Part shown: piece after piece, positions 3,661 through 12,431 of the stretch | How positions within the stretch are numbered: position 1 is the stretch's first letter | Layout: each line of letters opens with the position of its first letter | Assembly: GCA_031276235.1 (NCBI GenBank) | Contig: JAISNL010000046.1 | Coordinates: 1-55,601 of the forward strand | Direction of reading: 5' to 3' | Source: Prevotellaceae bacterium | GTDB lineage: Bacteria; Bacteroidota; Bacteroidia; Bacteroidales; UBA932 | Length of the DNA stretch: 55,601 bases | Position numbers and translations under genes: made by a program | The notes under the pieces: model-generated | Told to the model about the DNA's origin: nothing | The model's database searches: none | Seen by the model: the letters and a program-made list of their open reading frames with translations, nothing else

Positions 3661-4164
3661 CTATGACGTCATTCGCGCTTTGTTCCATTCGCCAACTTCG
3701 AGATTTGCAATGTTATCACCGCTTATTTCAAAACGCGTTGCTGTGAGCACGGCGTGAAAGCCATAGTTTCCTGCGGCTCCGGGATTTATATGCAGAAAGC
3801 CAAACTGCTTATCGTTCATCACTTTCAAAATATGCGAATGTCCACAAATAAAGAGTTTGGGAGGATTTATCAAAAATTCTTTATAAATCGAATAATCGTA
3901 ATGCGATGGATAGCCTCCAATATGCGTAATCATTACATCTACATTTTCGCAAATAAACCGAAGGATTTTCGGATATACAATGCGAACATCCTGTCCATCG
4001 CAATTTCCGTGAACACCGCGCAGGGGCTTAAACGCGGCAATTGCATCGGCAGTTGCGATATTGCCAAAATCGCCTGCATGCCAAATTTCATCAACATCGG
4101 CAAAAAAATTCTTCAATTTATCATCGAAAGTTCCGTGAGTATCGGAAAGCAAACCTATTTTCAT
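3661..4164 (-). CDS. metallophosphoesterase, YfcE/MJ0936 family
   Basis: 167 aa. 'MKIGLLSDTHG', 'HAGD', 'GNCD' and 'CGHSH' are metallophosphoesterase motifs in canonical order. Confidence 0.85.
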   Translation of the reverse strand: MKIGLLSDTHGTFDDKLKNFFADVDEIWHAGDFGNIATADAIAAFKPLRGVHGNCDGQDVRIVYPKILRFICENVDVMITHIGGYPSHYDYSIYKEFLINPPKLFICGHSHILKVMNDKQFGFLHINPGAAGNYGFHAVLTATRFEISGDNIANLEVGEWNKARMTS

Positions 4165-6776: not shown

Positions 6777-6807
6777 TTTGCTGTTCGACTTAAATTTTGT
6801 ACTTTTG
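6777..6807 (+). promoter_or_regulatory. Bacteroidota promoter (TTTG-N19-TACTTTTG) for serC operon
   Basis: -33 TTTG at 6777-6780 and -7 TACTTTTG at 6800-6807, 38 nt upstream of the serC ATG. Confidence 0.6.
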
Positions 6808-6844
6808 GCAAAATTTTAATTGTAAAAAATAAATTATTAAAAAT

Positions 6845-7906
6845 ATGAAACAACACAATTTTGGAGCAGGTCCATGTATCCTGCCACAACAGACGCTTGA
6901 TGCTACGGCAAAAGCAATTATCAATTTTAACGGATTATCGGTGCTGGAAATTTCGCACCGTTCAAAAGATTGGGAAGCCGTGATGAACGAATGTCGCTCA
7001 TTGTGGAAAGAACTGCTCAACATTCCGGATGGCTATCATATACTTTTTTTGGCGGGAGGCGCAAGCACTCAGTTTTTGAACATTCCTTTCAATTTACTTG
7101 AGAAAAAAGCAGCCTATCTTGACACTGGAGTATGGGCAAGTAAAGCGGCAAAAGAAGCCACACTGTTTGGCGAAACTGTAACAGTTGCATCTTCAAAGGA
7201 CAGAAACTACAATTATATTCCCAAAGGCTGGACAGTTCCGCAGGATGCAGATTATTTGCATATCACTACCAATAACACAATTTACGGAACGGAAATTCGT
7301 GAAGATTTTGACTGTCCTGTAAATCTTGTTGCCGATATGTCTTCGGATATAATGACGCGCAAAGTGGATGTTTCAAAATATGCTTTGATATACGGAGGCG
7401 CTCAAAAAAATGTGGGACCTGCCGGCGTAACTTTTGTTATCGTTCGCGAAGATATTTTGGGAAAAGTTTCGCGTAAACTTCCATCCATGGTCGATTACAG
7501 ACTGCATATCAAAAACGAATCAATGTACAATACGCCGCCGGTAATTTCTATTTTTATAATGAACGAAATGCTGAAATGGATAAAAGAATCGGGCGGAGTA
7601 GAAAAAATGGAAGAACTTGCAAAAAAACGCGCTGAAATTCTTTATGCCGAAATAGAACGCAATTCTCTGTTTAAGGGAACTGCCGAAAAAGATGCACGCT
7701 CTTATATGAATATCTGTTTTGTAATGACCGAAGAACACAGAGACAAAGAAACCGCATTTATGGAATTTGCCAAATCATGCGGAATGGTTGGTATTAAAGG
7801 ACATCGCTCTGTTGGCGGATTTCGCGCATCTTGCTACAACGCATTACCTGTGGAAAGCGTGCAGGAACTGATAAAATGTATGCAGAAATTTGAAAAAATG
7901 CAATAA
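6845..7906 (+). CDS. serC: 3-phosphoserine/phosphohydroxythreonine aminotransferase
   Basis: 353 aa. '[14 protein letters not shown]' at the N-terminus, 'GGASTQF', '[14 protein letters not shown]' with the PLP lysine, and '[11 protein letters not shown]'. Confidence 0.92.
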
Positions 7907-7910
7907 AATT

Positions 7911-8231
7911 ATGAAAACAGGCGTATGGTTATCTTATGATTTGGGAATAAAAGGCGATTATTCGGGCTTGTATCAATGGCTGGATAGCCATGATGCGGTT
8001 GAATGTGGAAACAATATTGCCTTTTTCAAAATGGATGTTGCCGATAAAGATATTATTGAAACAGTAAAATCCGAAATCAACAAAAATGTTGACATAAAAA
8101 ATGGAGAACGTTTTTATTTAATATATAAAAAAGCAGATGGACGATATGCAGGTAAATATATTTTCGGCAACAGGAAAGCCAATCCATGGGAAGGATACGG
8201 GCAGCAACCGACAAATGAAGAAGATTTATAA
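7911..8231 (+). CDS. hypothetical protein, possible Cas2/VapD-like ferredoxin fold; partner of the PIN protein
   Basis: The ATG at 7911 is 4 nt after the serC stop (the track start at 7890 overlaps serC). 106 aa. 'VWLSYDL', 'ECGNNIAFFKMDV' and 'ERFYLIYK' are spaced like Cas2/VapD strands. The C-terminal tail is acidic. The stop overlaps the next ATG (TAATG). Confidence 0.5.
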   Translation: MKTGVWLSYDLGIKGDYSGLYQWLDSHDAVECGNNIAFFKMDVADKDIIETVKSEINKNVDIKNGERFYLIYKKADGRYAGKYIFGNRKANPWEGYGQQPTNEEDL

Positions 8232-8653
8232 TGCTGAATGTAATAATTGACAGCGGTTTCTGGTTTGCTTTGTATGATCCGAGCGATGCCTATTATACAG
8301 AAGCAAACAACATTGCAGAACATTTAAATAATAATAATGTAATCATACCGTTTCCTACTTTGTATGAATCAATAAATACAAGATTTATGAAAAATTCGAC
8401 AGCAAAAACCGAATTTGAAAATATTCTTAAACGCAGCAATGTAAAAATTGTGGATGATGAACCAGTTAAAAATGATGCATTAAGAATTACCTTTACGGAT
8501 GAAAGTAAAAAAAGAAATTTAAGTCTGGTAGATAATATTATAAGATTGATATTGGAAGATGTTAATTATAAAATAGATTATTTAATCACTTTCAATAAAA
8601 AAGATTTCATTGATATATGCAAAAAACGCAACATTAAAATTTTAGATAACTAA
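8231..8653 (+). CDS. PIN-domain (VapC-like) putative ribonuclease
   Basis: 140 aa. Acidic residues fall in canonical PIN order: D7 ('VIIDSGF'), E46 ('LYESI'), D101 ('SLVDN'), and N122/D125 ('TFNKKDF'). Confidence 0.7.
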   Translation: MLNVIIDSGFWFALYDPSDAYYTEANNIAEHLNNNNVIIPFPTLYESINTRFMKNSTAKTEFENILKRSNVKIVDDEPVKNDALRITFTDESKKRNLSLVDNIIRLILEDVNYKIDYLITFNKKDFIDICKKRNIKILDN

Positions 8654-8676
8654 TTAATTAAATTAAAAATAAAAAC

Positions 8677-9597
8677 ATGAAAATATTAATAGCCACAGAA
8701 AAACCTTTTGCGAAAGCAGCCATTGATGGCATTCGCAAAATTGTTGAAAATTCGGGACATGAACTTCATTTGCTCGAAAAATATTCAGAAACAACTCAAT
8801 TACTGTCGGCGGTAGCCGATGCAGATGCATTGATTGTGCGCTCCGACAAAGTTACAAAACAGGTTATAGAAGCCGCCGGAAAATTAAAAATTGTTGTGCG
8901 TGCTGGCGCAGGCTTCGACAATCTTGATTTGGATGCCTGCACATCAAAAAACGTTGTAGCGATGAATACCCCGGGACAAAACTCAAACGCAGTTGCCGAA
9001 CTCGTTTTAGGATTGATGATTTTTATCAACCGCAACAAGTTCAGCGCAGGCACAGGCGCTGAACTTAAAGGCAAAAAACTTGGCATTCACGCCTACGGAA
9101 ATGTAGGACGGCTGGTTGCCCGCATTGCAAAAGGATTCGACATGCAAATCTGGGCTTTCGACCCGTTTATAAAAAAAGAAATAATACAGGCAGATGGAAT
9201 TACGGCAGTTGATAATGCAGAAGATTTGTATGCAAACTGCAATTATGTTTCACTACATATTCCGGCAAACGACAAAACCAAAAAATCAATAAACTGTAAA
9301 CTGCTTAACCTTATGCCCGAAGGCGGATGCCTGATAAACACGGCACGCAGGGAAGTGATTGATGAAGATGATTTAATGAAACTATTTGACAAACGCGCCG
9401 ATATTAAATATGTAACAGATGTTGCACCTTTAAATATTGCAGAATTGCAGCAAAAATTCGGAAACCGCATCTTTGCTACGCCCAAAAAAATAGGCGCAGA
9501 AACTGCCGAAGCAAATATTAATGCAGGATTAGCCGCCGCAAAGCAAATTGTGAACTTTTTCAACAACGGCGATGTAACGTTTCAACTCAACAGATAA
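8677..9597 (+). CDS. serA: D-3-phosphoglycerate dehydrogenase (short, D-2-hydroxyacid dehydrogenase family)
   Basis: 306 aa. 'VRAGAGFDNLD', NAD motif 'GIHAYGNVGRLVA' and 'NTARREVIDE'. Lies directly downstream of serC. Confidence 0.85.
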   Translation: MKILIATEKPFAKAAIDGIRKIVENSGHELHLLEKYSETTQLLSAVADADALIVRSDKVTKQVIEAAGKLKIVVRAGAGFDNLDLDACTSKNVVAMNTPGQNSNAVAELVLGLMIFINRNKFSAGTGAELKGKKLGIHAYGNVGRLVARIAKGFDMQIWAFDPFIKKEIIQADGITAVDNAEDLYANCNYVSLHIPANDKTKKSINCKLLNLMPEGGCLINTARREVIDEDDLMKLFDKRADIKYVTDVAPLNIAELQQKFGNRIFATPKKIGAETAEANINAGLAAAKQIVNFFNNGDVTFQLNR

Positions 9598-9666
9598 AAC
9601 TGATTGCAAAACAAAATCAAAAATACGAGTATTCATATTAAATATTAATGTATAAAAATAAAAATC

Positions 9667-10911
9667 ATGGTTAAAATTAAACCTTTTAGAGCATTGCGTC
9701 CGCCCAAACAATTAGCGAAACAAGTATCGGCGCGTCCTTATGATGTAATGAATTCAGCAGAAGCAAAAGCCGAAGCAGGCGACAAATCGTTGCTGCACAT
9801 CACAAAGCCCGAAATAGATTTTGAGCCGATGATTGATGAACATTCGCAGCAGGCATACGATAAGGCTGTTGAAAATTTCAAAAAATGGAGAGAACAGAAA
9901 TGGCTTGTGCAGGAAGACAGGGAAAAATATTATATCTATGCGCAAACCATGAATGGCAGAGTGCAATACGGACTTGTTGCATGCGCCAATGTTGACGATT
10001 ATCTGAACGGCAAAATCAAAAAACATGAACTTACCCGCAAAGATAAGGAAGACGATAGAATGATTCACGTGAAAATACAGAATGCAAACATCGAACCCGT
10101 TTTTTTTGCCTATCACGACGTGGATGAAATGAACGAAATAGTTGAAAGAATTGTAATCAATCAAGTGCCTGATTACAGTTTTGTAGCCGATGAAGACGGT
10201 TTTGGGCATGATTTTTGGGTGATTGATGATGACGAAATTAACCACAGAATCACCGAAATCTTTGCTTCCATTCCTGCGCTTTATGTTGCCGATGGACATC
10301 ACCGCACCGCAGCAGCCGCACGGGTAGGAGAAGAAAAACGCAACAAAAACAAATATCATACAGGCAAGGAAGAATACAATTATTTTATGGCTGTAATATT
10401 TCCTGCAAGCAATTTGATGATTATTGATTATAATCGCGTAATCAAAGATTTGAACGGATTAAGCAAAAAAGAATTTATCGAAAAACTCGAAAAATCGTTT
10501 ATCATTGAACCGAAAGGCAAGGAAACATACAAACCCGATAAACTGCACAACTTTTCGATGTACATTGACAACGAATGGTATTCGCTTACGGCAAAACAGG
10601 GCGCATACAACGATAGCGACCCAATAGAAACGCTTGATGTAACCATTCTTTCAAACCTTGTATTCGACGAAATTTTGAACCTCGGAAATCTTCGCACATC
10701 AAACCGCATTGATTTTGTAGGTGGCATTCGCGGGCTGGGTGAACTTAAAAGACGTGTTGACAGCGGCGAAATGGCTGTCGCATTTGCATTGTATCCTGTA
10801 TCAATGAAACAACTGATGAATATTGCCGATACGGGAAATATCATGCCACCGAAAACCACATGGTTTGAACCCAAACTTCGTTCAGGGCTGGCTATACATA
10901 CTTTGGACTGA
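9667..10911 (+). CDS. DUF1015 domain-containing protein
   Basis: 414 aa. 'MVKIKPFRALRP', 'LLHITKPEIDF', 'HELTRKDKEDDR' and 'YVADGHHR' are characteristic DUF1015 motifs. This is the usual neighbour of serA in Bacteroidales. Confidence 0.85.
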   Translation: MVKIKPFRALRPPKQLAKQVSARPYDVMNSAEAKAEAGDKSLLHITKPEIDFEPMIDEHSQQAYDKAVENFKKWREQKWLVQEDREKYYIYAQTMNGRVQYGLVACANVDDYLNGKIKKHELTRKDKEDDRMIHVKIQNANIEPVFFAYHDVDEMNEIVERIVINQVPDYSFVADEDGFGHDFWVIDDDEINHRITEIFASIPALYVADGHHRTAAAARVGEEKRNKNKYHTGKEEYNYFMAVIFPASNLMIIDYNRVIKDLNGLSKKEFIEKLEKSFIIEPKGKETYKPDKLHNFSMYIDNEWYSLTAKQGAYNDSDPIETLDVTILSNLVFDEILNLGNLRTSNRIDFVGGIRGLGELKRRVDSGEMAVAFALYPVSMKQLMNIADTGNIMPPKTTWFEPKLRSGLAIHTLD

Positions 10912-11065
10912 ACGGCTTTTACGGAGAATAATACAAAACTCAAAATATAAAACCGCGATTAGTACAAAAACATATTGCTTCGGCATAACACAGCAATATG
11001 AAAATGAAAAATGCCGGATGAGTTGCAAAAATACATCATTACATCAACTTATTGATTTTTAATGT

Positions 11066-11073
11066 TACCTTTG
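11066..11073 (+). promoter_or_regulatory. -7 promoter element TACCTTTG upstream of mdh
   Basis: TAnnTTTG match 44 nt upstream of the ATG at 11117. Confidence 0.45.
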
Positions 11074-12212: not shown

Positions 12213-12431
12213 ATGAAAAGAGTTGTACAGACAAGAGAACAAGTATGTTCTCTCATTGGCAAAATCCGCGAGGATAGAGAGTTGAGCCTTTACGACCTTT
12301 CAAAACTCTCAGGAGTAGGGCGAGATCATATTTGCAGAGTTGAAAACGGCGAACATTCTGTAAGCCTTGACGTACTGCTTAAACTGGTTAACGCGCTTGA
12401 CTGTGAAATAATAATCAGAGAAAGGCTATAA
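12213..12431 (+). CDS. XRE-family helix-turn-helix transcriptional regulator (orphan)
   Basis: 72 aa. 'LSLYDLSKLSGVGRDHICRVENGEHSVSLDVLLKLVNAL' is a classic HTH_3 pattern. Confidence 0.75.
   Translation: MKRVVQTREQVCSLIGKIREDRELSLYDLSKLSGVGRDHICRVENGEHSVSLDVLLKLVNALDCEIIIRERL

Follow-up and report, generated by a model that had tools for sequence, protein, structure and literature searches.

A probable VapBC-like toxin–antitoxin module with a predicted Cas2-like partner protein in the serC-serA spacer of a Prevotellaceae bacterium

In VapBC toxin–antitoxin modules, a small upstream gene overlaps a gene for a PIN protein of ~140 aa, whose fold carries four acidic residues. The modules are AT-rich and mobile, with a patchy distribution; of the two genes, that of the toxin is the first to decay, and the partner protein has an unstructured C-terminus. 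The partners of PIN proteins catalogued by Makarova et al. in 2009 comprise RHH, AbrB, PHD, Xre, COG2442, COG2880, COG1753, and MerR (PMC2701414). Cas2-fold proteins are known from VapD, a toxin–antitoxin component that acts as the toxin (PMC7180214), and from BPSL1038, a non-CRISPR Cas2-like nuclease with the motif D11(X20)SST (PMC10491678). Here, we analyzed a window of 55,601 nucleotides (contig JAISNL010000046.1 of assembly GCA_031276235.1, Prevotellaceae bacterium, positions 1 to 55,601, forward strand), in which two small genes, designated orfA and orfB, are located between serC and serA. We consider it reasonably probable that orfA-orfB is a VapBC-like type II toxin–antitoxin module with a noncanonical, Cas2-fold antitoxin, carried in the serC-serA transcript.

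The pair shares with VapBC all of the features listed above but differs in three respects. OrfA does not have any of the partner domains catalogued in PMC2701414 and has a predicted Cas2-like ferredoxin-fold core instead, the pair in the window has no room for an autoregulated promoter (4-nt gap after serC), and the conservation of OrfA exceeds that of typical antitoxins. Like Cas2 (PF09827), VapD, and BPSL1038, OrfA is a small, stand-alone protein with an Asp at the end of beta1, and, like BPSL1038, it has a conserved turn motif 20 residues past this Asp. OrfA differs from these proteins in several ways: no sequence-profile similarity to Cas2 or VapD was found, a PIN gene is its constant partner, it is encoded upstream in the antitoxin position, and it has an additional conserved C-terminal R-K-x-x-P-W. 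Furthermore, no Cas1 or CRISPR-related genes were found in the ~10 annotated neighborhoods of the pair, in which the PIN gene, and not vapX as for VapD, was the constant neighbor. In VapXD, the Cas2-fold protein is the downstream toxin, whereas OrfA is upstream, in the position of the antitoxin.

The genes of the locus are as follows.

6845 to 7906, + strand: serC, phosphoserine aminotransferase of the class-V aminotransferases (Pfam Aminotran_5, E = 2.6e-33), the host gene 5' of the insert
7911 to 8231, + strand: orfA, 106 aa, from an unannotated protein family, obligate upstream partner of a PIN gene and predicted antitoxin
8231 to 8653, + strand: orfB, 140 aa, VapC-type PIN domain, predicted toxin (endoribonuclease)
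8677 to 9597, + strand: serA, Pfam 2-Hacid_dh, D-3-phosphoglycerate dehydrogenase of the short 306-aa type, the host gene 3' of the insert
9667 to 10911, + strand: DUF1015 gene, third in the host cluster and conserved (Pfam E = 1.1e-110)

The TAA stop codon of serC (7904–7906) is followed, after a gap of 4 nt, by the ATG of orfA at 7911. The TAA stop codon of orfA (8229–8231) and the ATG of orfB (8231–8233) overlap by 1 nt to form TAATG (8229–8233), and the stop codon of orfB (8651–8653) is separated by 23 nt from the ATG of serA at 8677. An earlier reading of this DNA, made from the sequence alone (hereafter, the original prediction), had given these coordinates and the TAATG overlap, and all of them matched the sequence to the base when checked. 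It had also described the insert as AT-rich, and the GC contents of orfA (0.349) and orfB (0.265) were indeed lower than those of serC (0.405), serA (0.413), and the whole window (0.399). Neither a target-site duplication nor a terminal inverted repeat was found around the insert in the window, where only short chance repeats were present.

To characterize OrfB, sequence and structure comparisons were performed. OrfB matched the Pfam PIN family (PF01850) with 18.7 bits (E = 0.003), which is below the gathering cut-off of 23.6. PIN was the sole Pfam family that recurred among the OrfB homologues (13 of 41 at E ≤ 0.01, best 1.1e-4). When the profile of the 41 homologues was compared with the PDB sequences, the best match was AF_1683, a putative VapC of Archaeoglobus fulgidus (PDB 1w8i, E = 1.8e-4), and D7, E46, and D101 of OrfB aligned with its acidic residues (D, E, and D). 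The AlphaFold model of OrfB had a predicted local distance difference test score (pLDDT) of 94.1. In the Foldseek search with this model, the best structural match was Mycobacterium tuberculosis VapC20 (5wzf; E = 4.8e-5, template modeling (TM) scores 0.74/0.78), and AF_1683 and dozens of VapC structures were matched at a probability of 1.0. The sequence identity of OrfB to AF_1683 and VapC20 was just 16–20%, and VapC20, unlike OrfB, has a conventional VapB antitoxin as its partner. D7, E46, D101, and D125 were invariant in the 41 homologues, with N122 nearly so, and the same pattern, including the near-invariant N122, was found in 11 OrfB partners of OrfA from unrelated genomic contexts. The PIN acidic residues therefore occur in the canonical order, as had been proposed, on a fold that the model also assigns to PIN. 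By profile and model, OrfB is a divergent VapC-type PIN domain with an intact catalytic quartet.

No match to OrfA was found in Pfam, NCBIfam, PADLOC, or PHROGs, and a comparison with the viral folds of BFVD was uninformative. Across 59 close homologues, none of the RHH, AbrB, HTH, and Phd families of Pfam was matched even at E ≤ 10, and no antitoxin structure was among the top 50 PDB fold matches of the OrfA model, which agrees with the original prediction that OrfA lacks an antitoxin signature of these types. The family comprised 66 clusters at 90% identity, and a search of 1.84 billion proteins gave at least 414 representatives at 50% identity with E ≤ 1e-3. With few exceptions, the members stand alone and have 100–125 residues; the few longer entries resemble frameshifts, upstream extensions, or, in P0122, a fusion with a truncated orfB. 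One further entry, P0165 (244 aa), carries a 135-residue N-terminal extension without a Pfam match and may be a genuine fusion or the result of an overextended gene call.

The AlphaFold model of OrfA (pLDDT 89.5, predicted TM score 0.76) has a b-a-b-b-a-b-b topology, with beta1 at residues 2–10, alpha1 at 17–26, a short strand at 30–31, a strand at 36–42, alpha2 at 48–59, and strands at 67–73 and 79–85. Residues 86–106 have no secondary structure and a lower pLDDT in the model. The protein was divided into three segments.

7911 to 8165, + strand: OrfA residues 1–85, Cas2-like ferredoxin-fold core of the predicted structure
8166 to 8198, + strand: OrfA residues 86–96, near-invariant G-N-R-K-A-x-P-W-x-G-Y without predicted secondary structure, a candidate PIN-neutralizing segment
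8199 to 8228, + strand: OrfA residues 97–106, variable, acidic tail of low confidence, from the model and the alignment

In the Foldseek comparison of this model with the PDB, 16 of the top 20 matches were Cas2 proteins from many CRISPR subtypes. The scores were modest (best E = 9.7e-3, none at E ≤ 0.001; TM 0.50–0.61; probability 0.91–1.0), and the remaining matches were other ferredoxin-like or ACT-like proteins. VapD was not found in the top 50 PDB matches. At the sequence level, the OrfA family profile did not retrieve Cas2 or VapD from all PDB sequences at E ≤ 10, and Pfam CRISPR_Cas2 (PF09827) matched only one of the 59 homologues (E = 0.15). The alignment of OrfA with type II-A Cas2 by hhalign gave a probability of 0.15%, which is a weak test given the low diversity of the Cas2 alignment (80–96% identical internally). 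The original prediction had called OrfA Cas2/VapD-like: the Cas2-like fold was recovered, whereas the VapD likeness and any homology at the sequence level were not. Its placement of OrfA motifs on strands was also correct, with the motifs falling within predicted beta1 (2–10) and the strands at 36–42 and 67–73, and the acidic tail that it had noted proved to be general across the family. These results suggest that OrfA is Cas2-like at the level of the predicted fold, with borderline scores, and that by sequence it is not a member of the Cas2 or VapD families. The label of RNase, which comes from the fold likeness, is putative for OrfA.

The conservation of OrfA was determined in the 59 close homologues and in a diverse set of 133 representatives that were 29–53% identical to the window protein. 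D10 was the best-conserved residue, being Asp in 132 of the 133 representatives (99%); among the close homologues, Asp was present in 53 and Asn in 6. In the diverse set, conservation was 97% for L24, A29, and Y69, 96% for C32, 95% for G86, 93% for W93, and 92% for E31 and R67, and E31, C32, G33, R67, and Y69 ranged from 89 to 97%. G86, R88, P92, and W93 were invariant in the close homologues and 76–95% conserved in the wider family. In the model, D10 closes beta1, and E31-C32-G33 is located at the following turn. The catalytic Asp of Cas2 is located at the end of beta1. D10 might be the equivalent of this residue, as judged by topology and not by a residue-level superposition. The spacing D10-X20-E31C32G33 parallels the D11(X20)SST motif of BPSL1038 (PMC10491678), a parallel that again rests on topology.

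These residues bring in an alternative in which OrfA would itself be active, as a free-living Cas2-like nuclease or a nucleic-acid or ligand sensor that uses D10 and E31-C32-G33. It would cooperate with or gate the PIN RNase in an abortive-infection-type response, and the pair would be a hitherto undescribed two-nuclease defense or addiction module. The 16 Cas2 structures among the top 20 fold matches, the near-invariant Asp at the Cas2 catalytic position, the conservation of E31, C32, G33, R67, and Y69, and the BPSL1038-like spacing are in its favor, but the Asn at position 10 in 6 of the 59 close homologues and the absence of a sequence-level link between OrfA and Cas2 are not. Taken with the genomic contexts described below, we regard an active OrfA of this kind as unlikely, although it is the main rival of the VapBC-like reading.

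To investigate how the two genes are distributed, a metagenome scan was performed with the OrfB alignment, and 425 relatives were obtained. Pairing was counted in 81 loci (80 from the metagenome scan and 1 from viral contigs), of which 71 had at least 330 nt of upstream DNA. An OrfA-family gene was directly upstream of orfB in all 71, mostly with a spacing of −8 to +3 nt, and all nine other contexts that were inspected also contained orfA and orfB together. The two genes are an obligate pair. Carriers of the pair include Bacteroidota, Acidobacteriota, and Marinimicrobia, and the neighbors of the pair differed at each annotated locus. Two distant copies are in defense islands. In L002 (6429–8096), the pair is 6 nt upstream of a HEC-06/GmrSD-type gene with an adjoining integrase, and in L075 (203–4061), it directly follows Lamassu LmuA/LmuB and a C-terminal fragment of DRT UG24. 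At L086 (1363–2241), an IS1595-family transposase gene ends 38 nt 5' of the pair on the same strand. A HEPN-like gene is near the pair at L006/L007, and at L003, L073, L077, and L084 (Acidobacteriota and Bacteroidota), the pair is beside ordinary metabolic or transport genes. Among 2.9 million viral contigs, the only match was L167 (IMGVR_UViG_3300018868_000040, 26 kb), in which orfA is upstream of orfB and a same-strand open reading frame (ORF) ends 31 nt before orfA. PADLOC-DB 2.0 gave no match to OrfA or OrfB at E ≤ 1. For the two-nuclease alternative, the copies that adjoin Lamassu/DRT or HEC-06/GmrSD genes are supportive, but the single viral match, the negative PADLOC result, and the location of most copies outside defense islands speak against it.

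The pairing results also bear on the location of orfA between serC and serA, which, together with weak fold matches of OrfA to YkoF, an AHAS regulatory subunit, and yeast Ser33 (probability ~0.3), would fit a role as an ACT-like regulator that binds small molecules and was co-opted by the serine pathway, whose 306-aa SerA here has no ACT domain of its own. However, the invariant partner of OrfA was the PIN gene, in 71 of 71 loci and mostly outside a serine context, and not serA; a short SerA of this type is also present in the closest relatives, which lack the pair; and the ACT matches rank under those to Cas2. An ACT-like regulator of SerA was rejected on the constant partnership with PIN, and we give this idea almost no credence.

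To examine the history of the pair in its host operon, SerA was used to scan species-representative genomes, and 63 loci were obtained. In ~40 Bacteroidales, serC and serA are adjacent, with a spacer of 25–250 bp and no trace of the pair. The pair was found in the serC-serA spacer of the window, L001 (SerC 90% identical to that of the window), L082/L083 (91%), and L080/L081 (66%), and in a decayed form in the same spacer of L079 (56%). The pair had been predicted to be inserted rather than core, and both the ~40 Bacteroidales with adjacent serC and serA and the decay products in two near relatives upheld this view.

The closest relative, L010 (metagenome-assembled genome (MAG) "Prevotellaceae bacterium" Iy174_bin36), has a SerC 92% and a SerA 89% identical to those of the window. 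Its 127-bp spacer (3875–4000, equivalent to window 7907–8676) still contains ~24 nt from the start of orfA, in which ATA replaces the ATG, and ~55 nt from the end of orfB (87% identity, E = 2e-7). The following part of the window is missing.

7934 to 8598, + strand: stretch deleted in L010, ~665 bp, with approximate boundaries

As judged from these remnants, the L010 spacer is a fresh scar of a single internal deletion that removed both genes. In L079 (1452–1952), orfA (P0010) is intact, with all of the conserved residues present, whereas orfB is reduced to fragments (residues ~49–88 and the C-terminus) that lack D7, E46, and D101. In P0122 (153 aa), which is another decay form of the pair, the reading frame of orfA continues into a truncated orfB (…PWQGYASKQ followed by LLIPYPSMYEFLNT…). 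The deletion scar of L010, the shattered orfB of L079, and the P0122 fusion indicate that the cassette is dispensable and prone to decay.

The L079 remnant also helps to assign the polarity of the pair. An intact orfA beside a destroyed orfB is the order of decay expected if orfB encodes the toxin, which argues against OrfA as the toxin. The opposite polarity, with the Cas2/VapD-like OrfA as the toxin and the PIN protein OrfB as its antidote or immunity partner, draws on the known toxicity of Cas2-fold VapD proteins (PMC7180214) and on the near-invariant Asp at the catalytic-equivalent position of OrfA. Nevertheless, the L079 arrangement should be lethal were OrfA toxic, the catalytic quartet of OrfB is complete everywhere, the small overlapping gene comes first as in the antitoxin-then-toxin order of VapBC, and VapD does not appear in the 50 best fold matches of OrfA. 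We therefore consider this polarity very improbable.

Between the copies located in serC-serA spacers, the ratio of nonsynonymous to synonymous substitution rates (dN/dS) was 0.11–0.17 for orfA and ~0.10 for orfB, compared with 0.05–0.07 for serC and 0.07–0.12 for serA. The low values indicate that orfA and orfB are real genes under purifying selection where both are intact, and the dS of the pair, which was similar to that of the flanks, indicates coinheritance with the operon. Between the window and L079, dN was lower for orfA (0.21) than for serA (0.31) and serC (0.38). Purifying selection as strong as that on serA, a long-range conservation about equal to that of the flanks, and the tight embedding in the operon, which leaves no space for a separate promoter, would also be compatible with a nontoxic RNA-processing or housekeeping pair, in which a PIN RNase and an accessory subunit happen to lie in a serine operon. 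Against this stand the patchy distribution (the ~40 Bacteroidales with serC and serA arranged in this way lack the pair, and the closest relative has lost it by deletion), the foreign composition (GC 0.27–0.35 versus 0.41), and the integrases, insertion sequence elements, and defense genes that adjoin the pair elsewhere. A housekeeping role is, in our view, improbable.

In a neighbor-joining tree of SerC and SerA, the two pair-bearing groups were placed apart, although the deep branches were short and the method is crude. Sliding-window identity between the window and L080 or L079 did not reveal a high-identity stretch indicative of a recombination tract. The tree is compatible both with one old insertion followed by many losses and with repeated capture at the spacer, and either may have occurred.

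Other cargo was found at the same site. In L049 (Lentimicrobiaceae MAG, 230–1000), the spacer contains a PIN gene preceded by an ORF of 69 aa that is unrelated to orfA. The PIN gene matched Pfam PIN at E = 2e-8 after the repair of an apparent frameshift near its start; from the sequence, this is an independent capture of a different PIN module. The spacer of L018 (3531–4001) contains a gene for a four-helix-bundle 23S_rRNA_IVP protein (PF05635, E = 1.3e-38), and in L011 (1150–1322), which is nested among pair-bearing relatives, a 32-codon 23S_rRNA_IVP remnant replaces the PIN pair. Cargo thus appears to turn over at this position. Small cargo genes have repeatedly settled in the serC-serA spacer in the same orientation, and the presence of unrelated cargo families shows that this spacer is permissive and not specific to orfA-orfB.

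With regard to transcription, the + strand from 6800 to 11066 was searched for the motif TAnnTTTG, and a single match was found, 38 nt upstream of serC.

6800 to 6807, + strand: candidate Bacteroidetes-type −7 promoter motif (TACTTTTG), identified by motif match, with a presumed promoter function

No terminator-like hairpin was found in the serC-orfA or orfB-serA gaps, and the Rfam scan of the window gave no match. The statement that these gaps contain neither a promoter motif nor a terminator therefore holds, with no internal −7 motif and no hairpin. The sigma-70 scan gave 19 matches against 16 expected, a consensus that is uninformative for Bacteroidetes. The motif and hairpin scans fit a single serC-orfA-orfB-serA-DUF1015 transcript, which we infer. 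Since the 4-nt gap after serC leaves no room for an autoregulated promoter, expression of the pair would be by read-through from the serine operon, and this would fit an OrfA without a DNA-binding domain. In the 81 loci used for the pairing count (L087–L167), the upstream gene was on the same strand as the pair at 30 of 34 scorable loci and the downstream gene at 27 of 37. The upstream excess hints at a dependence on read-through but was not significant (Fisher p = 0.09).

Of the VapBC-like reading of orfA-orfB, the analysis shows how the genes are arranged, the PIN fold with its catalytic residues, the predicted Cas2-like fold, the obligate pairing, the patchy and mobile distribution, the purifying selection, and the decay patterns. 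According to this reading, the module is lodged in the serC-serA spacer and would rely for its expression on read-through that starts at the serC promoter. The effector would be OrfB, a VapC-like PIN endoribonuclease that requires Mg2+ and whose toxicity is presumed, and its cognate neutralizer would be OrfA, which is encoded first and translationally coupled. The Cas2-like core of OrfA would replace the usual DNA-binding and dimerization domain, probably serving for dimerization and possibly for nucleic acid binding. The segment G86-x-R88-K89-x-x-P92-W93-x-G95-Y96 with the acidic tail is the likely toxin-binding element, which would dock onto the active-site groove of the PIN protein, and the basic residues R88 and K89 might extend into the acidic pocket of OrfB. 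Residues 86–106 are unstructured in the model yet include the conserved G86, R88, P92, and W93, which matches antitoxin tails that fold on binding. The toxicity, the neutralization through the OrfA tail, the cotranscription, and any anti-phage role are the parts of this reading that we infer. The elements of the original prediction that could be checked were all supported, with reservations on the Cas2/VapD likeness and the RNase label of OrfA.

Several observations weigh against this reading. OrfA is unusually conserved for an antitoxin, above all at D10 (99% of the 133 representatives) and also at the ECG turn, and this conservation pattern suggests that the core has a function of its own beyond that of a scaffold. 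In the OrfA-OrfB covariation analysis (78 unique pairs, effective number of sequences ~63), the signal was at noise level and the tail was not singled out; A90 and E94 of the OrfA tail both coupled to L106 of OrfB (z 4–5), which is not interpretable alone. In addition, defense genes adjoin the pair in just 2 of the ~10 contexts (L075 and L002), and it is from this neighborhood, with no PADLOC model, that a defense role would have to be drawn.

Full-text searches did not reveal any PIN toxin described with a Cas2-like partner within the literature covered, and the main text of the NetFlax survey does not mention an OrfA-type partner (PMC10440598). The partner fold is unusual and the family is unannotated, whereas the overall toxin–antitoxin logic is already familiar. 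If the VapBC-like reading is true, the VapBC/PIN repertoire would gain an antitoxin of new architecture, in which a conserved R-K-x-x-P-W tail follows a Cas2-like ferredoxin fold, and the pair would define an unannotated family of obligate PIN partners (at least 414 clusters at 50% identity) that was missed by Pfam, NCBIfam, and PADLOC. Cas2 is thought to derive from VapD-type toxin–antitoxin nucleases. A Cas2-fold neutralizer beside a PIN toxin would then be a useful comparison for the ancestry of Cas2, and if the two-nuclease alternative were true, the pair would be a living case of a Cas2-fold protein in a toxin–antitoxin circuit, bearing on the proposed origin of Cas2. The locus also illustrates a promoter-less selfish cassette inside an essential biosynthetic operon, and in the serC-serA spacer of Bacteroidales, the intact, half-decayed, and deleted states of the cassette are all visible.

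Elsewhere in the window, a stand-alone gene for a 72-aa Xre/Cro-type HTH protein (12213–12431, + strand) is located directly downstream of mdh. It matched HTH_3 (E = 6.4e-10) and, weakly, MqsA-antitoxin-like proteins, with no obvious adjoining partner ORF, and it may be an orphan antitoxin or a regulator.

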